A stretch of DNA of 64,000 nucleotides, taken from the NCBI GenBank assembly GCA_025454975.1, contig JALONK010000013.1, positions 994 through 64,993 of the forward strand, in the 5' to 3' direction. The position numbers were made by a program, and so were the translations under genes. The stretch's first letter is position 1. Each line of letters begins with the position of its first letter. The notes under the pieces were generated by a model. The model saw only the letters and a list, made by a program, of their open reading frames with translations, was not told the origin of the DNA and did no database searches. The stretch comes from Bacteroidia bacterium (GTDB lineage Bacteria > Bacteroidota > Bacteroidia > UKL13-3). Shown piece after piece: positions 2,494-54,530 of this stretch.

Positions 2494-3972
2494 ATGTTGA
2501 AACAGGGATTACAACAAAAACAATTACAAAAGCTGTCACCACAGCAAATACAGTTTATTAAACTGTTACAACTTAATGCCGTTGATTTACAACAACGCAT
2601 AGAAGATGAATTAATAGAAAACCCGGCCTTGTTAAAAGCAGACGACGAAGATGCTGCCCCCAAAGAACAAACAGATAATGAGGTAGAAGTTGCCGAAGGC
2701 ACAGAAGCCGAAGCGAACGTTTCGGTGGAAGATTATTTGGCTGACGAAACCTTTGATGTAAAAGAATATGTGAATGACGAATATGACTCAGAAGGCTTTC
2801 ACTTAAGTGATGAAGGGCCGGATGAGGACAGAAAGGATATTCCTTTTGCAGAGTCTTCGGGCTTTCACGAAAGTTTAATGGAACAGTTTCGTGCGATTGC
2901 TACAAACGAAAGAGAGGAGATAATAGGCCAACAAATAATAGGTACTATTGACGATGATGGTTATTTGAGAAGGGAACTTTTAGCAATTATGAATGATTTG
3001 GCATTCGCACAAAATATTGAAACAAATGTTGAAGAAATGCAGCATTGTCTTCAAAAAATACAATCGCTTGACCCAGCCGGCATAGCAGCAACATCTTTAC
3101 AAGAATGTTTACTGTTGCAACTTAAACGTAAAGATCATAAAAAGAAAGAAGTTGTTTTGGCCGAACAACTCATAAAAAATAACTTCGACGACTTTACTAA
3201 AAAGCATTACGATAAAATAATTAAACAATACAAAATAACAGATGCCGACCTAAAAGAGGCCATACTAGTAATCACACACCTTAATCCAAAGCCGGGAGAA
3301 AGTGCCGCTGATGCTAAACCGCAATACATAAACCCCGACTTTGTAATTATTGAAAATAATGGTAAGCTTGAGGTGCAGCTAACCGCAAGAAATGCACCTG
3401 ATTTAAGAATTAGCCGCAACTATCTTGAAACCCTTAAAGGGTATGACGCTAATCCAACCCCAAATCGAGAGCTGAAACAAACAGTACAGTTTATTAAACA
3501 AAAACTGGATAGTGCACGATGGTTCATTGAAAGTATAAGACAACGACAACAAACGTTATTATTAACTATGTCGGCAATATTAGATAAACAATATGACTAC
3601 TTTTTAGAAGGTGATGAAACAAAATTAAGACCGATGATTTTAAAGGATATTGCAGAAAAGGTTGGACTTGATATTAGCACAATTTCTAGAGTAGCCAATA
3701 GCAAATATGTACAAACCGATTTTGGGATTATTCCATTAAAATTCTTTTTTAGTGAAGGAATCGCAACCGATGATGGAGAAGAGGTTAGCAGCCGAGAAGT
3801 AAAAAAAATACTAAAAGACGCCATTGATGCCGAAGACAAACGTAAACCGTTACCGGATGAAAAACTGATGGAAATCTTAAAAGAGAAAGGGTATAATATT
3901 GCAAGAAGAACGGTTGCCAAGTACAGAGAGCAATTACAAATTCCTGTAGCTCGATTAAGAAAGGAAATTTAA
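2494..3972 (+). CDS. rpoN: RNA polymerase sigma-54 factor
   Basis: 492 aa. C-terminal RpoN box ARRTVAKYRE, HTH region, acidic region II. Confidence 0.92.
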   Translation: MLKQGLQQKQLQKLSPQQIQFIKLLQLNAVDLQQRIEDELIENPALLKADDEDAAPKEQTDNEVEVAEGTEAEANVSVEDYLADETFDVKEYVNDEYDSEGFHLSDEGPDEDRKDIPFAESSGFHESLMEQFRAIATNEREEIIGQQIIGTIDDDGYLRRELLAIMNDLAFAQNIETNVEEMQHCLQKIQSLDPAGIAATSLQECLLLQLKRKDHKKKEVVLAEQLIKNNFDDFTKKHYDKIIKQYKITDADLKEAILVITHLNPKPGESAADAKPQYINPDFVIIENNGKLEVQLTARNAPDLRISRNYLETLKGYDANPTPNRELKQTVQFIKQKLDSARWFIESIRQRQQTLLLTMSAILDKQYDYFLEGDETKLRPMILKDIAEKVGLDISTISRVANSKYVQTDFGIIPLKFFFSEGIATDDGEEVSSREVKKILKDAIDAEDKRKPLPDEKLMEILKEKGYNIARRTVAKYREQLQIPVARLRKEI

Positions 3973-4028
3973 CAAACCGCATGTTCAAAATATTTTCTAC
4001 CTTGCGTTTAATAATGTAATTAAACAGT

Positions 4029-4565
4029 ATGGAAAACCAAGAAGAAAAACCTAAAAAAAGTGTTCGGCCAATAGTTGTTGCAGGTATAATATTATGGATT
4101 TGTATTATCGGTGGGGGAATTTCCTTCACAATTTTTTCAATAGTTAACCAATCAAGTTTATTAGCACTCACAAATCCTCAAGAGTTGGCTTTAGAGCAAG
4201 GTGTTGTGGCTTTAAACGCGCAATGTCCTGTTCAAATTGATGAAGAAACACAACTTGACTCGGTGTATTTAAACAAAGCAATAAAACAGGCAGTTTACGA
4301 ACTAACGCTTGTTAATACAAGTAATGAAGACTTAGACATTGCCGCAGTATATCCTGAACTCAGGAGAACATTAATCGAGGCTGTAGCAATGAATGCTGAT
4401 TTGGCGGGCTTGAGAAACTTGAGGTACTCAATTAAATATATTTATAACGATATGGATTATGTGCATTTATGTGATGTTCTGATTACTCCGGAAGATTATG
4501 AAGCGGTAATAAATAATGGTCAAGTACTTGATTCTACTGGCGTTGAACCATTAGACAATAACTGA
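4029..4565 (+). CDS. Hypothetical membrane-anchored protein (single N-terminal TM helix)
   Basis: 178 aa. Hydrophobic segment IVVAGIILWICIIGGGISFTIFSIV. The 3' end overlaps the convergent selD by 15 nt. Confidence 0.5.
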   Translation: MENQEEKPKKSVRPIVVAGIILWICIIGGGISFTIFSIVNQSSLLALTNPQELALEQGVVALNAQCPVQIDEETQLDSVYLNKAIKQAVYELTLVNTSNEDLDIAAVYPELRRTLIEAVAMNADLAGLRNLRYSIKYIYNDMDYVHLCDVLITPEDYEAVINNGQVLDSTGVEPLDNN

Positions 4566-5582
4566 TATTGCCGAGGCCCTATCTGATATCACCCCGATTT
4601 TATAAACTTGATGCCTACTCATTGAAAAAAGTTGTTTAACGATATGGTCATGCGTTGGATTTATCGTGAATAATAACCCCCCATTTGTTTGTGGGTCGGC
4701 TAACAATGCAAACGACAATAATGCATCAACGCCTTCGTCAATTGTAACAGCATCATTTATGTTATTCCAATTTCTATAAGTGGCATCAGGTAGTACACCT
4801 TGGGCTGCTAATTGTTTAATTTCAGATAATACGGGGATTGCGCTTAATGAAATTTTTGCACCAACATTAGACGCCTTGCACACTTCTAATAAATGTCCTC
4901 CCAACCCATAACCGGTAATATCAGTCATGGCATTTATTTCAATTTGTTTTCCAAGAACAGCACCAATCTTATTTAGGCTTGTTATTTCGTCATAAAACGC
5001 ATGTATGTGTTCAAGTTGCAAACCTTTTTTAATAGCAGCACCAATAATTCCAAAGCCAATCGGTTTAGTTATATAAATAAAATCCCCGGCTACAGCCGAA
5101 CTGTTTAACTTTATTTCCTGCTTTTTAGCAAGGCCATTTACTGACAAACCGAAGAATGGTTCCGGAGCATCAATGGTGTGTCCGCCAGATATTACAACAC
5201 CTGCATGATGGCATGTTTCTTTGGCGCCTGCCATTACAGTTGCTGCAACCTCAACGGGAATTTTATCAATTGGCCAACCCATTATTGCAATGGCTGTAAT
5301 CGGATTTCCGCCCATAGCATAAACGTCACTTAAGGCATTTGCCGAAGCAATTTTACCAAACAGAAAAGGGTCATCAACAACCGGGGTAAAAAAATCAGCA
5401 GTAACAATCAGACATTGTTCATCAGCAAGCAAATAAACTGAAGCATCATCATTGTTTTGGTTACCAATCAATAAATTATCCAAGCCCGAAGTTCGCGAAT
5501 CGTGAAGTAATTTTTGTAATACGGCCGGTTCAATTTTACATCCACATCCCGAACCTTTAGCATATTGTGTAAGCTTTATCAT
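4551..5582 (-). CDS. selD: Selenide, water dikinase (selenophosphate synthetase), Cys-type
   Basis: 343 aa. N-terminal LTQYAKGSGCGCKI motif identical in layout to E. coli SelD, with Cys rather than a TGA-encoded Sec. AIR-synthase-like fold. Confidence 0.9.
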   Translation of the reverse strand: MIKLTQYAKGSGCGCKIEPAVLQKLLHDSRTSGLDNLLIGNQNNDDASVYLLADEQCLIVTADFFTPVVDDPFLFGKIASANALSDVYAMGGNPITAIAIMGWPIDKIPVEVAATVMAGAKETCHHAGVVISGGHTIDAPEPFFGLSVNGLAKKQEIKLNSSAVAGDFIYITKPIGFGIIGAAIKKGLQLEHIHAFYDEITSLNKIGAVLGKQIEINAMTDITGYGLGGHLLEVCKASNVGAKISLSAIPVLSEIKQLAAQGVLPDATYRNWNNINDAVTIDEGVDALLSFALLADPQTNGGLLFTINPTHDHIVKQLFSMSRHQVYKIGVISDRASAISVIV

Positions 5583-45527: not shown

Positions 45528-48446
45528 TTATTTAGTCGGCTGCCCGAATACTTTACGATTTACTTTACGTGTTTTTTCAATAATTTGAAATTGAATCACA
45601 AGACCATCCGTGTCTTTAGTTACTTCAACTTTGTAGTCATTCCTGGTTAACATAAACTTTTCACCAAGAACTTGTTCGTCAAACGCAATTGTATAAGTGC
45701 CAAATGGTAAGTATAACTCAAACGAGCCATCTAATGATGTTAAGGTTTCATAAACTTTACCCTCACCTTTTGCTGTTATTTTTATTAATGATAAATCAAA
45801 AGGGTCATTTGCATCATAGTTTACTTGGTCTCTACGAATACCAACCTTTCCTTTTATTTTCACACTTTTAACAAAAGGGATATAATTGATTTTGTTACCG
45901 GCTAAGATCAAACTATCTTTAACGTTAGCAAACCATCCATCTACTTGGTCAAGCGCAAGTATAACAACTCGTTGCGGTCCGTTAGGCGCACCTGTTAACA
46001 ATGCCTCACCTTCTTCATTTGTTAACAATTCGTTTTCTCCAATCCTGATAACTACGTTTTCAAATGGCTTTTCGTTTTTATCCATGATTCCATTCCCATT
46101 AATATCAAAAAAGGCAACAAACTGTGCATTAGAATAAGTTTGTTTTTTTAATGGTATTGGTGCGTTAAATTCCTTGCGTATTCCTAAATTGATAAACATA
46201 CCTTGTGTTGTCATTCGTGGTGTTTCGTCGCTAACAAAAGCATTGCTATAGGCATTAGCTAAAGCAACCCCCGATTGAAGATTGTAGTTTATCCCAAACC
46301 TAAAACGCCAAGCGTTAGGGGTAAAATATAAAATTTCGGGAAATAAATTAATGGTATGGCGCTTAAACTGATTTCCATAAAAGTAGCTCATTCCATTTTG
46401 TAAAATAAAGCGAGGGTTAGCAAATACGTATTGGTGCGAGAAATTTGCATTTATGGTTTGTTGAACAACACCATTAATTGATAAGGCTGGAATGGCACCA
46501 ACTGCTCCAATGTTATATCTAACGTTTGATGTAAAGGTTTTATAAAACAAAATACTGTTAAATAATAAATATGGTTGGTTGGCTCTTTCAACACCTAATA
46601 AAGTTGGAGTGGCAACACCTGCTTCTATATTACTCGAAAAACGGAAAAAGGTTTTGGGGTTAAATGTGGTATAGTTAAAGTTTGCGCCTTTAATATCGTT
46701 GCTGCCATTAGCAAAAATGAAACGATTATATAGGCCCGCAAATTGAACACTTTGCACCTTGTTAGTTCTAACAAAAGCCAACATGTTATTATAAGCAATT
46801 ACTTCTGCTACAAATGGAAATGAAGTTTTTGTGTAATCATAATTGTTTACCATTGTTATATTCCATTGTTGGTTTATTACGAACTGTGTGCGATGATTAT
46901 AAAAGGTGCGAAGTGTTTTAAGGTTAGAATAATTAGGAGAGCTACTTCCAAAAGTGTGGTTCATGTTTATTTTGTTCTTAAAGAATGAACCTCCATAGTT
47001 TACCAAGTAAAAAAAACCTTGTAGACTTGCGCCTGAACTTCTTCTTTCATTCCAGTTGTTTGAAACATTAAACGAAATGGTTTGGGTTTTAAGAAAGTTA
47101 ATTCCACTTCTCAAGTTTAGTGAACGGGTATAAAAGCCGGTTGCTTCATTGTCTGCTTCAGCATACTCAATTAAAACCCTATTGTTACGTAAATACGCAA
47201 ACTGGTATGACACACCTTTTGCCGTTAAAAAGTTTTTCATACGTTGGTTGCTGTTAGTCACATAAAAGCCACCAATTGTATGTTTGCGTGTAAGATTGTA
47301 AGCAGCTTTTACTCCACGACCAAATGTTTGAACCCCCATCACTCCGCCGTTTACAAACCCGGCTTGTACATTTCCTCTTTCATGAAAATATGCTAAATAA
47401 TAATTTGTATTATCTATGGCTTCTCCTAATCTGTCAGTGGTTGCGTTCGACTGCACATTAAATATTAGTTGAGCGCGATTGCTAACTTGTCCATTACCTC
47501 TGATATTTAAACCGGTGAAAGAAACGTTGTCGAGTAAGTTACTTACATTAAAGTCAACAATTACCGGAATGTGCGAGTAAGTTTGATTAGAATAGCTGCT
47601 TTTATCACTTAGTTTTTTAATAATGATACGTTGGTTATTACTAAAGGCATTTCCTTGACCTAAATTAGGCTCATCAGTAGAGGCAATAATGTTAAATGTT
47701 TTTTCTTCGTTGTTGTTTATTGGTCTATAATTTTCAATATCTGCAATTTGTTGATTTTTTTTAGCTGATGTGTATTTAAAAACGAAGGTTAGGCTGGTAT
47801 CAACCATATGACCTAAGTTAAACAGATACGATTTGTTGGTTGTTAAGTTTCCAAAGCTATCTCTAACTTCAGAGTATAAACTTTTATTTCCAATGGTTAA
47901 ACTTATTGGTTGCTTTTCAGCTCCGGTGTTTAATATATTCAAACGAAAGCGAAGTTCATCGGTTCCGTTTTTAAGGTACAACTTGTTGCCTTCTAAAATT
48001 GTTGTTTTCCAGCTTGTTTTTTTAATGGTAAATGCCCAAAATGTAGCATCAGTTATAAACCTTCCTGATGCATTAAGTACATTTACATTTACCATGTAGC
48101 GACTGCTTCCGCCCATTAGTTCCTGAGGGATTAGTCGCAATGGAATAAATATAGAGTCGAATGCCGGAATTTGATATTCGGCCAATTCAGCTCCAATTTT
48201 TCTCCAACCCTGAGGATAGTCAAAGGTAACTTTAACATCAACAGGTTGGTTTGTTGGATTGCTTATGCAAGCAACATTCGAGAGCATTTCTCCTTGTATA
48301 ATTTCTAATTCATTTTCACGAAAGGTGGCTTGAACATTATTTTGTGCAGCAACATTTAGTGAGCAGAAATAAAGGCATACAAGTATGATATTTAGGGTAA
48401 TTGTTCTCAACTTGTTATTAGTTAGGGTAAAATTAAAGGGACTCAA
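45528..48446 (-). CDS. Large outer-membrane protein, candidate usher-like pore (beta-barrel core plus two C-terminal Ig-like/CarboxypepD_reg-like beta-sandwich domains)
   Basis: 972 aa. Signal peptide; long central region with alternating aromatic/hydrophobic strands; C-terminal prealbumin-like domains. Start overlaps upstream subunit gene by 14 nt. Confidence 0.4.
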   Translation of the reverse strand: MSPFNFTLTNNKLRTITLNIILVCLYFCSLNVAAQNNVQATFRENELEIIQGEMLSNVACISNPTNQPVDVKVTFDYPQGWRKIGAELAEYQIPAFDSIFIPLRLIPQELMGGSSRYMVNVNVLNASGRFITDATFWAFTIKKTSWKTTILEGNKLYLKNGTDELRFRLNILNTGAEKQPISLTIGNKSLYSEVRDSFGNLTTNKSYLFNLGHMVDTSLTFVFKYTSAKKNQQIADIENYRPINNNEEKTFNIIASTDEPNLGQGNAFSNNQRIIIKKLSDKSSYSNQTYSHIPVIVDFNVSNLLDNVSFTGLNIRGNGQVSNRAQLIFNVQSNATTDRLGEAIDNTNYYLAYFHERGNVQAGFVNGGVMGVQTFGRGVKAAYNLTRKHTIGGFYVTNSNQRMKNFLTAKGVSYQFAYLRNNRVLIEYAEADNEATGFYTRSLNLRSGINFLKTQTISFNVSNNWNERRSSGASLQGFFYLVNYGGSFFKNKINMNHTFGSSSPNYSNLKTLRTFYNHRTQFVINQQWNITMVNNYDYTKTSFPFVAEVIAYNNMLAFVRTNKVQSVQFAGLYNRFIFANGSNDIKGANFNYTTFNPKTFFRFSSNIEAGVATPTLLGVERANQPYLLFNSILFYKTFTSNVRYNIGAVGAIPALSINGVVQQTINANFSHQYVFANPRFILQNGMSYFYGNQFKRHTINLFPEILYFTPNAWRFRFGINYNLQSGVALANAYSNAFVSDETPRMTTQGMFINLGIRKEFNAPIPLKKQTYSNAQFVAFFDINGNGIMDKNEKPFENVVIRIGENELLTNEEGEALLTGAPNGPQRVVILALDQVDGWFANVKDSLILAGNKINYIPFVKSVKIKGKVGIRRDQVNYDANDPFDLSLIKITAKGEGKVYETLTSLDGSFELYLPFGTYTIAFDEQVLGEKFMLTRNDYKVEVTKDTDGLVIQFQIIEKTRKVNRKVFGQPTK

Positions 48447-49071
48447 TGAGTACGTATCTTAACCGCAATTGGTAAGTTCCACTTCTGAATCCGGAGCCTG
48501 GCACTAACCTGTAGTCAATGTCGAAATTAAATTCATTGTAATTATTAATGGGATCGCCCGGTCCGTTTACATTTGTTGTACAAGAGCCGGCCGGCGTTGT
48601 AACACCGTTGTTCGAAATAATGAGAATTGGAGTTCCTCCAACTGTCGGCACATTAAAGAACTGATTCCCTGTTAACGAAGTATTACAAGCGTTTCTAATT
48701 CGTAATTGTAACAAATCTATTTCAGGCTTATTTCCCGATGTTGATGCTGAGTAAAGCATTTCCCACTCATTTGGCGGTGTTGATGCTGATCCGTTCTCCA
48801 CATAAATAACCAAGTTCCATCGGCAATCCGGGTTATTATTAATATTGTTTTTTACTGTTACTTTCAGGCGAGTAGCACCGTTTATGGTAAGACCCGACTG
48901 GTATTTCGTGTAGGTATCGAAAGAGAAGTCGAGGTTTGAAGTAGTAGTTAGTGAAAGAGAAACCTCATCGCAAAGTTGCGCTCTTCCGGTTAGGGCGGCT
49001 AGCATCAGCCAAACGAGGGTAAGTTTTTTCACTGTTGATTGATTAGGGTGATGGGTAAAATAAAAAACCAA
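48433..49071 (-). CDS. Small secreted fibre-subunit-like protein (paralogue of the 49110..49961 gene)
   Basis: 212 aa. Signal peptide; N-terminal alternating strand EVSLSLTTT; 4 Cys; C-terminus ...NFDIDYRLVPGSGFRSGTYQLRLRYVLIESL shared with the paralogue. Confidence 0.4.
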   Translation of the reverse strand: MVFYFTHHPNQSTVKKLTLVWLMLAALTGRAQLCDEVSLSLTTTSNLDFSFDTYTKYQSGLTINGATRLKVTVKNNINNNPDCRWNLVIYVENGSASTPPNEWEMLYSASTSGNKPEIDLLQLRIRNACNTSLTGNQFFNVPTVGGTPILIISNNGVTTPAGSCTTNVNGPGDPINNYNEFNFDIDYRLVPGSGFRSGTYQLRLRYVLIESL

Positions 49072-49109
49072 CGAGCTTTAGGGTGAAAGCTCGTTGGTAT
49101 AATTTTTAT

Positions 49110-49961
49110 CTATTGATCTTCTAATAATACATACTGAACGTACATAGTATATACACCAGGTTGGGCATAAGAACCGGCTCCGTTTACAGACACTAAGTCT
49201 TGTGACGTTGTTCCATCAGCGGCGAAAGCCATAGGGAAGATTGATGGTAAACCCGGAACGATACGGTAATCAATACTGTAGTAATAATCGCTGGTTAGTG
49301 CACCTGCTGCTGCAGTTAAATAACTTCCACCGGCAACTGCATCATCACCAACACCTGTAGTTCCTTTGTGTCCGGCAATGTATTTGTTGTTAGCAGTTGG
49401 AGCTGTACCGGTATTTGCAGGGTCAACATATAAGCTGTTTGAGCCCGATGGAGTAGCAACCGGTGGGAATGCAGCGCTATAATCGGCGAAAGCACCTGTA
49501 GCTGCTGCTGCATTAGCATTTGGTGTGTTTTGGCGTAATTCCAAAGCACTTAAAGGAATACGGTTGGTTGAACGAGTTCCGCCTGTACCGTAGCGAATTT
49601 GTTGATCCCAGAAACCTGCTGCAACGTTTCCGTTAGAACGGCCAATTGCATAAAGGTCCCAATTAACAGTTGAACTGATTTTTAAAATTGTTGCACCATA
49701 CTTGGTAATACCTGCATAATACTCATTGATGTTATCGAACGTGAAATCAATTTGATTTGGCGTTGACATGTTCAATTGTAAAATAGGTTGTAAATCCATA
49801 GTGATGGTAACATCCTTTTGATCTTGTAACTGAGCGAATGCTCCGTTTGAGAATAAAAATGCTGCGGCTGCGCAAGCGATTACTTTTAGAGTTTTCATAG
49901 TGTAATTATGTTGAGTTTTGTCGATACAAACTTTCAACAAATAATTAACATAAAAAAGCAA
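49110..49961 (-). CDS. Secreted fibre-subunit-like protein with Ala/Gly/Thr-rich low-complexity region (candidate major subunit)
   Basis: Signal peptide MKTLKVIACAAAAFLFSNGAFAQ (probable start 49898); C-terminus YYSIDYRIVPG...GVYTMYVQYVLLEDQ. Coding DNA is noticeably more GC-rich than its surroundings. Confidence 0.4.
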   Translation of the reverse strand: MLFYVNYLLKVCIDKTQHNYTMKTLKVIACAAAAFLFSNGAFAQLQDQKDVTITMDLQPILQLNMSTPNQIDFTFDNINEYYAGITKYGATILKISSTVNWDLYAIGRSNGNVAAGFWDQQIRYGTGGTRSTNRIPLSALELRQNTPNANAAAATGAFADYSAAFPPVATPSGSNSLYVDPANTGTAPTANNKYIAGHKGTTGVGDDAVAGGSYLTAAAGALTSDYYYSIDYRIVPGLPSIFPMAFAADGTTSQDLVSVNGAGSYAQPGVYTMYVQYVLLEDQ

Positions 49962-50020
49962 ATGAATGGCTGTTTAAAAAAATAAAATGCAAACGCCTGA
50001 TTTACAGCAATAAAAAAATA

Positions 50021-50069
50021 AGCTATTTATACTTTTTAACAGCTATTTAATTTTTATAGCAGCTATTTA
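50021..50069. repeat. Three direct repeats AGCTATTTA (TAAATAGCT on the gene strand) at exact 20-bp period
   Basis: Copies at 50021, 50041, 50061. The last overlaps the stop codon of the chaperone-like gene. Confidence 0.6.
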
Positions 50070-50909
50070 TTCTATTGTAAAGGATAATTCTGCAGCTTCA
50101 ACAGCCTCTTTATTCCCATAATCTAGAATCCCTACAGCAGAATACTTACCCTTTTCGAGTTTTTCAGGTAAAGCAAACATATAATTACGTATATAACCCG
50201 GAAGGATTGTAAATCTTTTAACACTTAATTTTTGCTGTTTGCCGGTGCTTAGGTTGGTAAGCTCTACATAAGCAATACAACTGGCTATTCCGTCTCCTGC
50301 GTTACGTAATACCATATCAATTTTTGGCTGATTGTTTAGGTTTTGAAAAGTAAAGTTTTGAAACTCTACCTTATTATTTTTAACACTTGGTGGGTTTTGA
50401 TAAATATAAACACCAAACGCAAAGGTTGGAATTACGCCTAAAGAAATGGCCTTGTCATTTCCTGCATTGTCAATTGCTTCTCGTTCTTTTTTCTCTTCAA
50501 TCCACAGCAATCCCCAAGCAGCATGATTAGTACTGTCGGTGTCGGGAACTGTTAACGTAACAGCAATTTTCTTTACTTCTCCGGGTTTTAATTCGAAAAA
50601 AGTAGGGGCAGCACTAATCCAATTACTGATACCAAATTTCGAAGTTCCCGGGGCTAGAAACTCTGATTTTCCTGCATTGTCTGCATCATAATCAGAAAAT
50701 CGAACATTAAATGTTTTGGAAGAACGAGTCTCGTTTGTAACCTTTACTTCAACAGTTCTTGTTTCGCCAGGCTTTAAATTAAAGTTGATGTGTGAAGGGG
50801 TAACCGCAACGCCTACATCTCTTAATGTTGAATCATTCGGGTTTTTTTGTGCAAAAACAACCGAAACATTCAACAATAAATAAGTCAAGATAATGTTAAT
50901 ATGCTTCAT
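50067..50909 (-). CDS. Secreted two-domain Ig-fold protein, candidate PapD-like periplasmic chaperone
   Basis: 280 aa. Signal peptide MKHINIILTYLLLNVSVVFAQ; strand patterns VAVTPSHINFNLKPGETRTVEVKVTNE and SAAPTFFELKPGEVKKIAVTL reminiscent of PapD N-domain. First gene of the co-directional 4-gene cluster. Confidence 0.35.
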   Translation of the reverse strand: MKHINIILTYLLLNVSVVFAQKNPNDSTLRDVGVAVTPSHINFNLKPGETRTVEVKVTNETRSSKTFNVRFSDYDADNAGKSEFLAPGTSKFGISNWISAAPTFFELKPGEVKKIAVTLTVPDTDSTNHAAWGLLWIEEKKEREAIDNAGNDKAISLGVIPTFAFGVYIYQNPPSVKNNKVEFQNFTFQNLNNQPKIDMVLRNAGDGIASCIAYVELTNLSTGKQQKLSVKRFTILPGYIRNYMFALPEKLEKGKYSAVGILDYGNKEAVEAAELSFTIE

Positions 50910-51062: not shown

Positions 51063-52478
51063 ATGTTTATGGACGCTGATGATTTTTTAGATGAAGAAAT
51101 TCAATCCAACCTGCAAAGGTTTGAAAGGATGATGAGAAATAAAACACGCGAATATTTTGAGGCGGAGGAACTGGAGGATATTTGCGATTATTACATAAGA
51201 AAAGAAAAGCCCAAAAAAGCGCTCGAGGTTCTATATTTTGCTGAAGAAATATATCCAAACACGCTATCCTTCAAAATTCAAAAAGCGGAGTTGTTTTTGA
51301 TGTTAGACAAGGTTGATGACGCCCTTGAATTATTAGATCATGTTGCAGTTTTTGAACCTAACAATGATGAATTGTGGCTGATTAAAGGTGAAGCATTGCT
51401 GCTAAAAGGCGACTTTAAAGACGCTGCTGAGGCTTTTGAACAAGTATTAATTTACACAGATGAGCGTGTTGATATGCTGTTTGAAATTGCCTATATATAT
51501 GATGATAACAACATGTTTGAACAAGCAGCCTATTACTTTAAGTTGATTATTGCAGAAGAACCGGATAATGAACAAGCCTTTTTTGAACTTGCCAATTCTT
51601 ATGAAATTACCGGCAACCTCAACGAAGCTATTCAGATATTAAACCGATTAATTGATGTAGATCCTTATAATACGCTAGCTTGGTACAACATCGGATTAAT
51701 GTATAGCAAAGTTGGTCTTTTTGAAAAAGCGGTTTGGGCATTTGATTATTGTTTAGCAATTGATGAGGAGATGGCGCCTGCAAGGTTCAATAAGGCTAAT
51801 TCACTTGTAGAACTTGAGCAATTTGATGAGGCAATCGCTGAATATCTTTATACCATTGAACATGATGGTGCAGATGCAATCGCTTATTGCAATTTGGCCG
51901 GATGTTATGAACGCCTTGAAAAAAACGAAGAAGCAAAACTGTTTTATAAAAAAGCGGCTAAGCTCAATCCTAATATCGCAGAAGCTTGGTTTGGCATTGG
52001 GTTAACATACGATAAAGAGCATAAAGACAAAGAAGCTTTGCAATATGTGAAGCGAGCAGTTGTGCTCGAACCTGAAAATACCGAATATTTACTTGTGTTG
52101 GCCGAATTACAATATAGGCTTAACAAAACGTCAGACGCCGTTGATACATACAGAGAAATTGTTGCAATAGATCCTGAAATGATGGCGGCTTGGCTGGATT
52201 GGTCATACATATTATATGTTGAAAACCAAATTGATCAAGCCGTTGCATTGTTAATGGAAGCATTAATTAATCATCCAAATTGTCACCAATATTATTACCG
52301 ATTATGCTGTTATTATTACGCATTGGGAAAAACAAAAATTGCTACCCAGTGTTTGGAAGACGGATTAAATATTAACTTTGCCGACCATTTTCTGGTGTTC
52401 GAAGTGTTACCCGAACTGGCAAATGTAAATACCATAACAGATATTATAGAAGCATACCGTAATAATGAGAAATTTTAA
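51063..52478 (+). CDS. TPR-repeat protein
   Basis: 471 aa; about ten TPR units. TATATTTG -7 element 23 nt upstream. Confidence 0.75.
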   Translation: MFMDADDFLDEEIQSNLQRFERMMRNKTREYFEAEELEDICDYYIRKEKPKKALEVLYFAEEIYPNTLSFKIQKAELFLMLDKVDDALELLDHVAVFEPNNDELWLIKGEALLLKGDFKDAAEAFEQVLIYTDERVDMLFEIAYIYDDNNMFEQAAYYFKLIIAEEPDNEQAFFELANSYEITGNLNEAIQILNRLIDVDPYNTLAWYNIGLMYSKVGLFEKAVWAFDYCLAIDEEMAPARFNKANSLVELEQFDEAIAEYLYTIEHDGADAIAYCNLAGCYERLEKNEEAKLFYKKAAKLNPNIAEAWFGIGLTYDKEHKDKEALQYVKRAVVLEPENTEYLLVLAELQYRLNKTSDAVDTYREIVAIDPEMMAAWLDWSYILYVENQIDQAVALLMEALINHPNCHQYYYRLCCYYYALGKTKIATQCLEDGLNINFADHFLVFEVLPELANVNTITDIIEAYRNNEKF

Positions 52479-53256
52479 GTTAAAACAACTACCGGAGCGT
52501 ACTGCTAAACCAAGAAATAATGGCCTAACCATGGTTATGGATAAGGGCTTAAGCTTAAACGAGGCTGCAAACTTTATTGAAGCATGCGGCGATTATGTTG
52601 ATTTAGTGAAGCTTGGATTTGGGACAAGTATTGTTACACCCAAGTTAGAGGAAAAAATTGATTTGTATAAAAAATCAGGAATAGGCGTGTACTTTGGAGG
52701 TACTTTGTTCGAGGCGTTTATTGTTCGTAATCAGTTTGATGATTTTTTGTCATTAATTGATCGTTATAAACTTCCTTATATTGAAGTATCTGACGGCTCA
52801 ATTGAAATGCCACATGAAGTGAAACTCGAATATATTCATAAATTAAGTAAATATGCAACCGTATTGAGTGAAGTTGGGAGTAAAGATGTAGAAAAAATTA
52901 TTCCCCCATACCAATGGATTGAGCTGATGAAGGCTGAATTAAAAGCCGGTGCATGGAAGGTTATTGCCGAAGCTCGCGAAGCAGGAAATGTTGGTGTGTA
53001 TCGCAGTAGTGGTGAGGTAAGAGAAGGCTTAGTTCAAGAAATCTTAACAAAAATTCCGGGTGAAAAAATTATTTGGGAGGCTCCTCAAAAAGCTCAACAA
53101 ACATATTTCATTAAATTGGTAGATGCCAATGTAAACCTTGGAAATATTGCTCCTAACGATGTTATCCCTTTAGAAACTTTACGCATTGGATTACGAAGTG
53201 ATACCTTCTCGTTTTTCTTGAATAAATCAGCGAAATACATTGGCAAAAAAAAGTAG
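52465..53256 (+). CDS. comA: (2R)-phospho-3-sulfolactate synthase (ComA) family protein
   Basis: 263 aa. Colinear with ComA/PF02679 (GLTMVMDKG...VDLVKLGFGTS). Overlaps TPR gene by 14 nt. Confidence 0.6.
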   Translation: MRNFKLKQLPERTAKPRNNGLTMVMDKGLSLNEAANFIEACGDYVDLVKLGFGTSIVTPKLEEKIDLYKKSGIGVYFGGTLFEAFIVRNQFDDFLSLIDRYKLPYIEVSDGSIEMPHEVKLEYIHKLSKYATVLSEVGSKDVEKIIPPYQWIELMKAELKAGAWKVIAEAREAGNVGVYRSSGEVREGLVQEILTKIPGEKIIWEAPQKAQQTYFIKLVDANVNLGNIAPNDVIPLETLRIGLRSDTFSFFLNKSAKYIGKKK

Positions 53257-53282
53257 TTTTATTGTTGATTGAAAACAACTAA

Positions 53283-53741
53283 ATGATAGATATGAGTTTA
53301 CAAGATCAGATTAATGCAGATGTAATTACTGCCATGAAGGCAAAGGATGAGGTTTCTGTTAGGGGATTAAGAGCGCTCAAGTCAGCATTATTACTTGCTG
53401 CAACATCAGGAGGTACTAATGGCAAGGTAAGCGACGATGAAGCCTTGAAAATATTTCAGAAGTTGGCTAAACAAAGAAGAGAAAGTATTGAAATTTTCAA
53501 GAACAGTAATCGAATTGACTTAGCAACAGTTGAAGAAGAAGAATTACAAATCATTGAAAAGTATCTGCCAAAACAATTAGGCAATGATGAGATAAAAGCG
53601 TTTTTGTTGGAGCTTATTAAAGAGCTAAATGCCTCTAGTGCTGCCGACTTTGGTCGAGTCATGGGAGTGGCAACCAAACGCTTGTCGTCAGTTGCAGATG
53701 GAAAAGTGGTGTCAGCCATATTAAAAGAAATTCTAGCATAA
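53283..53741 (+). CDS. GatB/YqeY domain protein
   Basis: 152 aa; YqeY-like N-terminal motif. Confidence 0.7.
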   Translation: MIDMSLQDQINADVITAMKAKDEVSVRGLRALKSALLLAATSGGTNGKVSDDEALKIFQKLAKQRRESIEIFKNSNRIDLATVEEEELQIIEKYLPKQLGNDEIKAFLLELIKELNASSAADFGRVMGVATKRLSSVADGKVVSAILKEILA

Positions 53742-53819
53742 ATAAAGAATGTCTAAAAAGTTATAGGGCACACCTTGGGGTGCCCTTATGTGTGTTTATT
53801 AATTACCATTGTTAAGAAT

Positions 53820-54530
53820 ATGACAACTAACGAAGAAAGAATTAAAAAGGCTTTTGAAAAGAAGAATTGGCCGGAAATAAAAGTAACCGACAGTTGGGCC
53901 ACGTTTAAAATCATGGCCGAATTTGTTGAAGGGTTTGAAAAAATGAGTCGGATTGGTCCTTGTGTTTCTATTTTTGGTTCGGCCCGCACCAAATCAAATC
54001 ATAAATATTATTTGTTGGCCGAAGAAATTGCAGCTAAACTTGTTCAAGCTGGTTTTGGCGTGATTACAGGAGGAGGCCCCGGAATTATGGAGGCAGGAAA
54101 TAAAGGTGCTTATGAAGCAAGCGGCAAATCAGTTGGCTTAGGAATAGAATTACCTTTTGAGCAATTCATCAATAAATATGTTGATAGAGATAAGATGATT
54201 AATTTCGATTATTTCTTCGTCAGAAAGGTTATGTTTATGAAATATGCTCAAGGGTTTATTGCAATGCCTGGTGGTTTTGGTACAATGGACGAATTATTTG
54301 AAGCGCTCACATTAATCCAAACCCATAAAGTAGCAAGATTCCCGGTGGTATTAGTTGGAAGCGAATATTGGAAAGGACTTATTGAATGGTTAAAAATTAC
54401 TATGTGCAGCGAGGAACACAATATCAATCCGGAAGACATGGATTTATTTAAATTGGTTGATTCGGCCGAAGATGCCGTTAATTACATCCTGGATTATTAT
54501 GCAGATATGTCAATCAGTCCTAATTTTTAA
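53820..54530 (+). CDS. LOG-family (TIGR00730) cytokinin-riboside-5'-monophosphate phosphoribohydrolase-like protein
   Basis: Motifs GGGPGIMEAGNKGA and PGGFGTMDELFE. The ORF-track start 53775 is rejected: a terminator-like hairpin (AGGGCAC..GTGCCCT) lies at 53766-53790; the start is taken at MTTNEER. Confidence 0.75.
   Translation: MTTNEERIKKAFEKKNWPEIKVTDSWATFKIMAEFVEGFEKMSRIGPCVSIFGSARTKSNHKYYLLAEEIAAKLVQAGFGVITGGGPGIMEAGNKGAYEASGKSVGLGIELPFEQFINKYVDRDKMINFDYFFVRKVMFMKYAQGFIAMPGGFGTMDELFEALTLIQTHKVARFPVVLVGSEYWKGLIEWLKITMCSEEHNINPEDMDLFKLVDSAEDAVNYILDYYADMSISPNF

Follow-up and report, generated by a model that had tools for sequence, protein, structure and literature searches.

The four genes described here probably serve as an operon for making a TLP-1-type pilus, in which N-terminal donor-strand exchange would join the subunits into a tubular surface fibre, 8 nm wide, on Bacteroidota. 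The names TLP-1a/b denote tubular fibrils that were recovered from pond water and solved by cryo-EM (CryoSeek, Wang et al., PNAS 2024; PDB 9IKJ, 9IKK), and their organism, genes and assembly factors were left unidentified in that study (PMC11494351). Whereas TLP-1a/b are known as a structure from pond water only, here the gene, its operon partners and the taxonomic range of the family are visible. Fibrils of this type could now be assigned to Bacteroidota, with a chaperone-usher-like pathway that had not been described before, and the system is open to experiment in cultured Polaribacter.

The window, 64,000 nucleotides of a Bacteroidia contig, holds four co-directional minus-strand open reading frames at 50067..50909, 49110..49961, 48433..49071 and 45528..48446, exactly as first listed in the preliminary description, and all four encoded proteins have signal-peptide-like N-termini. 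The lengths originally listed are those of maximal ORFs and exceed the likely genes (Table 1). Translation of the major subunit starts at ATG 49898, giving 262 aa identical to NCBI MCU0422354.1, and that of the minor subunit probably at GTG 49032 (199 aa), judging from its signal peptide. For the 972-aa protein TTG 48410 is the probable start, because the signal peptide then has the same length as in its 17 homologues. This start would remove a 14-nt overlap between the last two genes, previously read as translational coupling, which probably arose because maximal ORFs were called. Even so, little space separates the genes: about 22 nt here and 1 nt in the related locus L001.

Table 1. Features of the cluster, in window coordinates
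Feature	Position	Strand	Basis
280-aa secreted DUF916 (WxLIP_PGBD)-type protein, candidate periplasmic chaperone	50067..50909	-	ORF, PF06030
Major fibre subunit, precursor of 262 aa with a 22-aa signal peptide and 240 mature residues, TLP-1a/b protomer homologue	49110..49898	-	
N-terminal donor strand (beta1), codons of major-subunit mature residues 1-17, QLQDQKDVTITMDLQPI	49782..49832	-	monomer model, TLP-1 cryo-EM, conservation
Hairpin with a perfect 13-bp stem and a T-run, an intrinsic terminator or attenuator	49057..49098	-	terminator scan, folding energy
Minor subunit, ~199-aa precursor, donor-strand-less paralogue of the major subunit	48433..49032	-	paralogy
Large outer-membrane protein (maximal ORF of 972 aa, starting probably at TTG 48410), candidate usher-like export/assembly platform	45528..48446	-	
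Outer-membrane protein: two N-terminal beta-sandwich (Ig/ASH-like) domains, residues ~39-280	47607..48332	-	model, Foldseek domain matches
Outer-membrane protein: beta-barrel, ~26 strands, residues ~295-760, without inserted plug domain	46167..47564	-	
Outer-membrane protein: two C-terminal beta-sandwich domains, SdrD_B-like and CarboxypepD_reg-like, residues ~771-957	45576..46136	-	model, sub-threshold Pfam

Fibre subunits and their relation to TLP-1

Homology comparisons show that the major subunit and the solved TLP-1a/b protomer are members of one family, and that the donor strand has been kept. The profile search against the TLP-1 chains gave E-values of 2.2e-59 and 8.3e-58 and covered chain residues 2-236, and the window protein itself aligns with TLP-1 over residues 1-234 at 37% identity (BLASTP, E 6.5e-43). 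Among the family sequences compared, the closest to TLP-1 shares 43% identity; by these alignments the window protein is a divergent member of the family, distinct from TLP-1 itself. It shares the fold of the TLP-1 protomer (PDB 9IKJ/9IKK), and its N-terminal donor strand, beta1, lies outside the globular head. In the monomer model residues 1-13 have pLDDT values below 50 and are disordered, as is the same segment in the AF2 model of the TLP-1 paper (PMC11494351). In the fibril, beta1 of protomer n+4 inserts into protomer n, a donor-strand exchange seen by cryo-EM, and the map is that of a homopolymer with no second component (PMC11494351). The strand is almost invariant across major-subunit loci and in TLP-1 (conserved QL.DEKDVT.TMDLQP). 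The 8-nm tubular homopolymer with n+4 to n exchange is known for TLP-1a/b only. With no more than 37% identity to TLP-1, the window subunit may form a fibre of other helical parameters, which is a point against the pilus-operon model.

Type V pili (FimA/Mfa) are likewise surface fibres of Bacteroidota that use strand exchange. Their pilins are lipoproteins, proteolytically matured, with a C-terminal donor strand, whereas the signal peptides here are ordinary ones that end in A before a mature Q (50 major subunits), none of the 50 major subunits examined has a lipobox, and the solved homologue has its donor strand at the N-terminus. The earlier suggestion of a little-known fibre system in Bacteroidota, separate from type V pili, is supported.

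The two small proteins are indeed paralogous, as had been proposed (BLASTP E 1e-07, 26% identity over 185 residues), and the C-terminal motifs IDYR[IL]VPG ... Y....YVL[IL]E are common to both. Donor-strand-like N-termini had been ascribed to the pair; this holds for the larger protein and fails for the smaller, which was found in 52 loci and lacks the strand in every one. At each of these loci its mature N-terminus reads Q-x-C and passes directly into beta2, about 12 residues shorter than that of the major subunit, and the alignment of the minor-subunit family HMM with TLP-1 (E 1.7e-05) begins only at residue ~19 and runs to the C-terminus. The minor subunit would therefore act as a strand acceptor only, and is a probable tip or initiator.

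Conservation of the module and its hairpin

Comparative genomics gave the same gene order in every locus with enough sequence upstream (about 47 Bacteroidota loci, from Flavobacteriales, Bacteroidales, Sphingobacteriales and Chitinophagaceae), the DUF916 gene always standing first. The order was also kept when the search began from the subunit closest to TLP-1a, and among informative loci it holds down to 27% barrel identity. Judged by this comparison, the four-gene arrangement is far beyond chance, because the order is kept in related loci while the flanking genes change. The same constancy speaks against the idea that the genes are neighbours without a shared function, in which case the 972-aa protein would be a porin or nutrient transporter unrelated to the fibre, while the subunits would leave by another route such as the type IX secretion system. 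We consider this highly improbable: the minor-subunit and barrel genes lie within a few nucleotides of each other, and the 972-aa protein has no Pfam match to a TonB-dependent-receptor plug or other transporter family. In addition, the subunits could not accommodate a C-terminal sorting domain of the type IX system: their C-terminus aligns to the end of TLP-1, where the last strand, beta7, lines the donor-strand cleft.

Directly 3' of the major-subunit stop codon lies a hairpin of -22.8 kcal/mol (z -10.2). All 47 of the 47 loci have a hairpin of -15 kcal/mol or stronger here, and the same threshold was reached at control positions in 5/47, 1/43 and 0/47 (0-11%); the stem sequences differ between lineages. 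The hairpin might set the stoichiometry of the products, keeping chaperone and major subunit high and minor subunit and pore low.

Candidate chaperone and outer-membrane barrel

The 280-aa protein had been described as carrying PapD-like strand motifs, an assignment that we could not uphold. DUF916 (PF06030) is the one family to exceed its threshold, scoring 29.0 bits where 27.3 are required; it accounts for the N-terminal half and matches 56 of the 58 family members (best E 2.2e-11). Weak matches to MSP (39 of the 58), ASH and Cep192 also occur in the family, and a near-identical cluster mate, MCU0422355.1, is named 'DUF916 domain-containing protein' by NCBI. PapD_N/PapD_C (PF00345/PF02753) gave no match to the window protein with an E-value limit of 1, and they are absent from the 25 families with most matches among the 58 members; a profile search of PDB sequences with the 280-aa family found no chaperone; and hhalign against genuine E. 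coli chaperones (FimC, SfmC, YehC, YadV) gave a probability of 1.4% (E 0.036), which is not significant, with a collinear alignment over 201 columns. By these Pfam, profile-profile and PDB-profile searches it is no detectable member of the PapD family. The protein has no lipobox and no C-terminal membrane helix (it ends ...AELSFTIE). In Gram-positive clusters, AF2 predicts that a DUF916 strand completes the incomplete beta-sandwich of a partner (PMC10599100). DUF916 membership, secretion and the absent anchor make the 280-aa protein a candidate for the chaperone of the subunits.

WxL/WxLIP clusters resemble the module in that a DUF916 protein is encoded next to two paralogous beta-sandwich partners, and differ in that their Gram-positive hosts have no outer membrane and hence no barrel. 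The module could be a Gram-negative counterpart in which the DUF916 protein, as a stable structural partner and not a transient chaperone, tethers the two beta-sandwich proteins to the surface or peptidoglycan, and the product in this lineage is a surface complex with no long fibre. Such a reading draws on WxLIP_PGBD being the only above-threshold family, on the match between this gene set and 'one WxLIP plus two WxL', and on the LysM or SPOR peptidoglycan-binding domains of some barrel relatives. We find it very improbable, given that the partner is homologous over its full length to a protomer whose solved structure is a homopolymeric fibril, and that its polymerisation donor strand is almost invariant. 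WxLIP proteins, moreover, have DUF3324 (PF11797) and a C-terminal membrane helix. The 280-aa protein has no such helix and no DUF3324 match, DUF3324 is also missing from the 25 families found most frequently in its 58 relatives, and the WxL family of Pfam matched neither subunit nor any of 76 major-subunit relatives. Fibre formation is not known for WxL proteins.

The model of the 972-aa protein is a barrel of about 26 strands (pLDDT about 90) flanked by two N-terminal and two C-terminal beta-sandwich domains. The preliminary description had anticipated the large barrel and the C-terminal pair and overlooked the N-terminal pair, whose domain-level Foldseek matches are Ig/ASH-type repeats. The layout is that of an usher (N-domain, large barrel, two C-terminal beta-sandwich domains), and the top six Foldseek matches in the PDB are full-length FimD (E 1e-12 to 3e-10, ~800 aligned columns, TM-scores only about 0.3), followed by full-length PapC, with FimD/PapC matches spanning E 1e-12 to 2e-09 overall. 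In distant relatives LysM x3 or SPOR peptidoglycan-binding domains are appended after the C-terminal domains, which would therefore be periplasmic; the N-terminal domains are placed in the periplasm as well, since the strand count of the barrel is even. Usher families (PF00577, PapC_N/PapC_C) gave no Pfam match in this protein, hhalign against FimD, SfmD, YehB and HtrE a probability of 0.09%, and the model has about 26 strands and no plug insert where ushers have a 24-strand barrel with an inserted plug. We regard the protein, on its modelled structure, as a candidate for an usher-like export and assembly platform. The alternative identity named at the outset, a TonB-dependent receptor, was rejected, as there is neither an N-terminal plug nor a match to a receptor barrel family.

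The original assignment to chaperone-usher pili of the sigma/archaic (Csu, SCPU) type can accordingly be divided. Its subunit, chaperone and usher logic finds support in the TLP-1 homologue, the DUF916 protein and the Foldseek matches to FimD/PapC. The family assignment does not: none of the four window proteins matches PapD (PF00345/PF02753), Usher (PF00577) or SCPU (PF05229) in Pfam, the two hhalign probabilities are negligible, the barrel differs as described, and the subunits have no close fold match to CsuA/B or CupE. Overall, the observations were partly confirmed and the interpretation partly supported, its logic being largely right and the family and some details wrong.

Proposed assembly of the fibre and comparison with known systems

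We propose that Sec carries all four proteins across the inner membrane, and that each subunit, once in the periplasm, has its open groove covered by a strand of the DUF916 protein through donor-strand complementation, so that subunits stay folded and unpolymerised. The chaperone-subunit complexes could then dock on the periplasmic beta-sandwich domains of the barrel. The acceptor-only minor subunit would go in first and end up at the distal tip, after which the N-terminal strand of each major subunit would replace the chaperone strand and the fibre would be extruded, growing from its base. The n+4 to n exchange in TLP-1 implies a tube of four strand-linked protofilaments, which would require several cooperating pores or lateral association outside the cell. 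Several observations sit uneasily with a pilus operon of this kind: a ~26-strand barrel is too narrow for an 8-nm tube, n+4 exchange is at odds with single-file extrusion through one pore, and the lack of a plug domain leaves pore gating without explanation.

These geometrical points are also what favours an extracellular assembly of the curli or TasA kind, which we hold to be unlikely. Here the barrel would serve only to secrete single subunits, the role of the DUF916 protein would be limited to blocking periplasmic polymerisation, and the minor paralogue would be a surface nucleator or anchor (like CsgB or TapA), with strand exchange outside the cell and no usher-type catalysis at the base. 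A four-protofilament 8-nm tube is hard to extrude through one ~26-strand barrel, and the barrel has neither a plug nor a sequence relation to ushers. An acceptor-only subunit, on the other hand, is unable to nucleate by strand donation and suits a distal cap better than a base anchor; the four presumably periplasmic beta-sandwich domains are collinear with the N- and C-terminal domains of ushers, full-length examples of which are the best Foldseek matches; and a dedicated partner, putatively with two Ig-type domains, is kept in every locus. TasA is not known to be assembled with an outer-membrane pore or a dedicated Ig-type chaperone. The fold resemblance of the subunit to TasA fibres of Bacillus subtilis (PDB 8AUR) is distant, at 10% identity.

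The pilus operon that we favour has close parallels in Fim, Pap, Csu and CupE. In these too, N-terminal donor-strand exchange builds the fibre, and one operon encodes major and minor subunits together with a large barrel flanked by periplasmic beta-sandwich domains and a periplasmic partner of Ig type, for which the DUF916 protein is the candidate here. FimH and PapG are first-in subunits without a donor strand, a feature that Fim and Pap would share with the present system. It differs from chaperone-usher pili in its ~26-strand plug-less barrel and two N-terminal domains, and in the register of exchange, which is n+1 to n in chaperone-usher pili and n+4 to n in TLP-1. No component has detectable sequence homology to those pili, and for a pilus operon the lack of such homology between its chaperone and barrel and PapD chaperones and ushers is a point against. 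Unlike in classical chaperone-usher operons, the candidate chaperone gene comes first. The most conserved component of the module is the major subunit, which is the opposite of classical chaperone-usher operons and likewise runs counter to the pilus-operon model.

The major subunit and the TLP-1 fibrils

The type of fibre encoded by this cluster is already known as a structure, TLP-1. The family profile of the major subunit recovers PDB entries 9ikk (E 2e-59) and 9ikj (E 8e-58) over the whole chain, and the major subunit of the window is 37% identical to TLP-1a end to end (E 6.5e-43). TLP-1a, like TLP-1b, is an 8-nm tubular fibril with a 15-Å lumen, and the two were resolved to 3.2 and 3.5 Å straight from filtered pond water (Tsinghua Lotus Pond); the authors identified neither producer nor gene nor assembly route, metagenomics and mass spectrometry gave no match, chaperones and ushers appear in the reference list only, and no gene-neighbourhood analysis is reported (Wang et al., PNAS 2024, PMC11494351). 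Our search for later publications in which a pilus operon is connected with TLP-1 or DUF916, which was thin on subscription journals and does not prove absence, found none. The locus, the producer phylum, an acceptor-only minor subunit, a DUF916 chaperone candidate, a plug-less usher analogue and a conserved attenuator all appear to be undescribed.

In the fibrils, the N-terminal donor strand, beta1, is inserted from protomer n+4 into protomer n. After a signal-peptide cut between A and Q, the mature major subunits begin with QL.(D/E)(E/Q)K.V..T(M/L)D(L/M)QP(I/V)L(Q/E)L in 50 of 50 related loci, which agrees with beta1 almost residue for residue, and an AlphaFold2 model of the mature subunit (pTM 0.80, pLDDT 79.5) leaves the first ~13 residues outside the fold. 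The preliminary description had read donor-strand-like segments into both small secreted proteins; this holds for the major subunit but not for the minor one, which is devoid of the strand in 52 of 52 cases. A type V pilus is ruled out, as there is no lipobox and the donor strand lies at the opposite end, and a type IX secretion substrate is likewise ruled out because there is no space for a C-terminal sorting domain. No Pfam family was found for the major subunit and 75 relatives; a search with the major subunit gave 840 matches, the best 120 of which are 60-90% identical.

Measured against the window, the 45 complete loci show a median identity of 64% in the major subunit, 45% in the DUF916 protein, 40% in the minor subunit and 31% in the barrel, a ranking opposite to that of classical chaperone-usher operons. 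The high conservation of the major subunit agrees with the description of the tubular fibril as rich in lateral contacts and, together with the wide spread of the cluster across orders, suggests that the fibre has an important function in Bacteroidota of aquatic habitats. One Bacteroidales MAG (locus L022) carries two tandem major-subunit genes (3412-4227 and 4283-5068) ahead of the minor subunit, a pair that recalls the co-occurring TLP-1a/b variants.

The cluster itself is real and highly non-random. All four minus-strand ORFs are present, each with a signal-peptide-like N-terminal segment, and their coordinates stand as ORFs; as genes, three of them need their starts moved. The corrected major subunit is identical in sequence to NCBI MCU0422354.1, 'hypothetical protein [Bacteroidia bacterium]'. 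A GTG start is most likely for the minor subunit, whose maximal ORF reads through the terminator hairpin lying upstream, and a TTG start is most likely for the large protein because its predicted signal peptide then has the same length as in 17 homologues. With these starts, the 14-nt overlap that had been taken for translational coupling probably arises from the use of maximal ORFs; the minor-subunit and barrel genes are tightly spaced all the same, with a gap of 1 nt in locus L001. The small proteins are true paralogues (BLASTP E 1e-07) and share the C-terminal motifs listed in the preliminary description.

Features of the cluster, its surroundings and the modelled large protein
Feature	Position	Strand	Remarks
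DUF916 protein gene	50067..50909	-	280 aa
Major-subunit gene	49110..49898	-	ATG start at 49898; 262-aa precursor
Minor-subunit gene	48433..49032	-	GTG start at 49032 most likely; 199 aa
Barrel gene	45528..48446	-	maximal ORF, 972 aa; TTG start at 48410 most likely
Hairpin	49098-49057		directly 3' of major-subunit stop; perfect 13-bp stem and T-run; -22.8 kcal/mol, z -10.2
Tandem 20-nt units	50021-50080		three units, spacing exactly 20 nt
Divergent genes	51063-54530	+	TPR protein, ComA-like, YqeY-like, LOG-family
Signal peptide	N-terminus of 972-aa protein		AF2 model
Two beta-sandwich domains	residues ~39-280 of 972-aa protein		AF2 model
Barrel	residues ~295-760 of 972-aa protein		AF2 model; ~26 strands, no inserted domain
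Two further beta-sandwich domains	residues ~771-957 of 972-aa protein		AF2 model

The three partner proteins

The partners of the major subunit are annotated as no more than hypothetical or DUF916 proteins. All 52 mature minor subunits start with Q-x-(x)-C and continue directly into the strand aligned with beta2, their N-terminus being ~12 residues shorter than that of the major subunit; their profile aligns to TLP-1 from residue ~19 only, through to the extreme C-terminus (E 1.7e-05, PDB database size). Since the N-terminal strand is missing, the minor subunit is predicted to accept a strand and to be incapable of donating one. In Fim and Pap systems, an acceptor that cannot donate is the hallmark of the tip subunit, which is incorporated first. 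A cysteine at mature position 3-4 is conserved in all minor subunits (loci L001-L056 and the window); the window's minor subunit has four cysteines in total and its major subunit zero. This pattern suggests that a disulfide may lock the N-terminus of the donor-strand-less subunit.

The 280-aa protein is a secreted protein that lacks a membrane anchor. Only one family scores above threshold, PF06030 (DUF916, WxLIP_PGBD), at 29.0 bits where the cut-off is 27.3; it is also matched by 56 of the 58 relatives in the family alignment (best E 2.2e-11), many of them with additional weak matches to MSP, ASH and Cep192 domains. A search with the 280-aa protein gave 173 matches. Profile comparison with FimC, SfmC, YehC and YadV gave a collinear, non-significant alignment (probability 1.4%), and the family profile run against PDB sequences placed EfmWxLIP1 at E 0.49 and gave no evidence for PapD. 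Nothing useful came from the single-sequence search of PDB sequences with this protein or from NCBIfam for any of the four. Residues ~215-269, in the second half of the family profile, weakly match synaptotagmin C2 domains in the PDB (E 1.5e-04), probably reflecting a common beta-sandwich pattern and not homology. We infer a chaperone role for this protein. The typical Gram-positive WxL cluster combines a single WxLIP with a pair of WxL proteins, and the layout here is also one DUF916 protein with two partners. Gram-positive DUF916-DUF3324 proteins (WxLIP) are reported to consist of two perpendicular Ig-like domains, with a DUF916 strand predicted by AlphaFold to complete the beta-sandwich of the partner (Hassan et al., PMC10599100); this amounts to donor-strand complementation in all but name. 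The shared DUF916 hints at an evolutionary or mechanistic tie to the WxL clusters, which have been implicated in adhesion and virulence.

In whole-chain Foldseek searches with the AF2 model of the 972-aa protein (pLDDT 77.5, pTM 0.44; barrel ~90), the top six matches are full-length FimD (E 1e-12 to 3e-10, ~780-830 columns), followed by PapC (E 2e-09) and, only from 3e-07, by TonB-dependent transporters, all with low TM-scores of ~0.3. A TonB-dependent receptor is ruled out, as there is no plug. Profile-profile comparison of the barrel family with FimD, SfmD, YehB and HtrE gave a probability of 0.09%, Pfam returned only sub-threshold SdrD_B and CarboxypepD_reg within the C-terminal 200 residues, and the single-sequence search of PDB sequences gave nothing useful. 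The modelled protein thus appears usher-like in architecture, as first proposed, but fails usher membership on sequence and on the plug. A word-indexed search found just 18 relatives, every one hypothetical, and an exhaustive profile search 1600 representatives at E <=0.001 (287 at E <=1e-30), mostly full-length. In two distant relatives (P0342 and P0362) the C-terminal beta-sandwich domains are followed by three LysM domains or by a SPOR domain, which would put this end of the protein on the periplasmic side, the usher arrangement; the even strand count would put the N-terminal domains there as well. Many other relatives reach 1100-1560 aa, and their extensions have no Pfam match. In Polaribacter (L034 4333-8850, L036, L039, L045 and L051) the barrel protein reaches ~1500 aa through an additional ~540-residue N-terminal region without a Pfam match, and the rest of the cluster keeps its usual gene sizes.

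A probable assembly route

None of the four proteins has a Pfam match to the PapD, Usher or SCPU families, and membership in the Csu/SCPU group is thereby ruled out. The functional logic proposed at the outset was largely right, its family assignments were not, and a chaperone-usher-like pathway is the best-supported and probably the correct reading. Following export of all four proteins by Sec, the DUF916 protein would cap the subunit groove, and the capped subunits would dock at the periplasmic domains of the barrel. The acceptor-only minor subunit would enter first, and major subunits would then join at the base through strand exchange.

The part that such a pathway does not simply fit is the fibre topology. 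With strand exchange running from n+4 to n, the 8-nm tube is made up of four protofilaments, covalently unlinked yet strand-linked. Such a tube would be too wide for a barrel of the predicted ~26 strands, and the topology challenges the single-file usher model. It is possible that several pores cooperate, that four chaperone-capped subunits are seated at the base, or that protofilaments associate outside the cell. The main rival moves polymerisation outside altogether, with monomers exported in the manner of curli or TasA; we consider it unlikely. If the usher-like reading holds, the machinery of donor-strand pili would be broadened, with a DUF916 protein serving as chaperone and the usher role going to a plug-less barrel of a family that has no Pfam model. 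More tentatively, this might be the first genetic account of a donor-strand pilus pathway in its own right, spread throughout Bacteroidota, whose DUF916-type chaperone and plug-less ~26-strand usher analogue have no detectable sequence kinship to the classical proteins, and whose four-protofilament tube would need either cooperating pores or a base that holds several chaperone-capped subunits; Gram-positive WxL clusters would then be its monoderm version, with WxL proteins donor-strand-complemented or even fibre-forming.

The orphan TLP-1 structure gains a gene family, a phylum that includes cultured Polaribacter, and three conserved partners. The maker of TLP-1 and its assembly route are therefore directly testable, and an orphan cryo-EM structure becomes a genetically tractable system.

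The conserved module and its surroundings

When one genome per species was scanned, 54 loci emerged, every one of them within Bacteroidota; Flavobacteriales, Vicingus, Salibacteraceae, Bacteroidales, Sphingobacteriales and Chitinophagaceae are among the groups represented, and Flavobacteriales include the cultured carriers Polaribacter sp. MF5-112 and P. uvawellassae SLMDC-22 (loci L034 and L036). Cluster conservation is borne out: the order DUF916 protein, major subunit, minor subunit, barrel on a single strand is kept in each locus whose upstream DNA reaches far enough (HMM search of six-frame ORFs), and the unit also surrounds P0184, the subunit nearest to TLP-1a, and likewise P0015. On one side the flanking genes are shared with the closest relatives only, on the other side with none; the conserved unit thus consists of these four genes alone.

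A hairpin of <=-15 kcal/mol follows the major-subunit gene in 47 of 47 loci, with stem sequences that vary between lineages, against 5/47 after the chaperone gene, 1/43 after the barrel gene and 0/47 within the barrel gene. This fits attenuation, by which the minor subunit and the pore would be kept scarce relative to chaperone and major subunit. Matches to the Bacteroidota -7 promoter motif TAnnTTTG were below chance, with none upstream of the cluster, and a sigma-70 scan gave background level. The tandem units, each beginning AGCTATTTA (TAAATAGCT, coding strand), run across the stop of the DUF916 gene and lie upstream of the gene for the major subunit; they may serve a regulator as binding sites or form a promoter element.

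The divergent genes beside the cluster are syntenic with it in the closest relatives only (10-16 loci, nearly all within L001-L019) and are probably neighbours by descent, outside the system. The contig of locus L019 (CAYMRD010000007.1) is labelled 'uncultured Bifidobacteriaceae bacterium' and holds a typical copy of the cluster; because its proteins are 42-78% identical to those of the window, the bin label is probably wrong.
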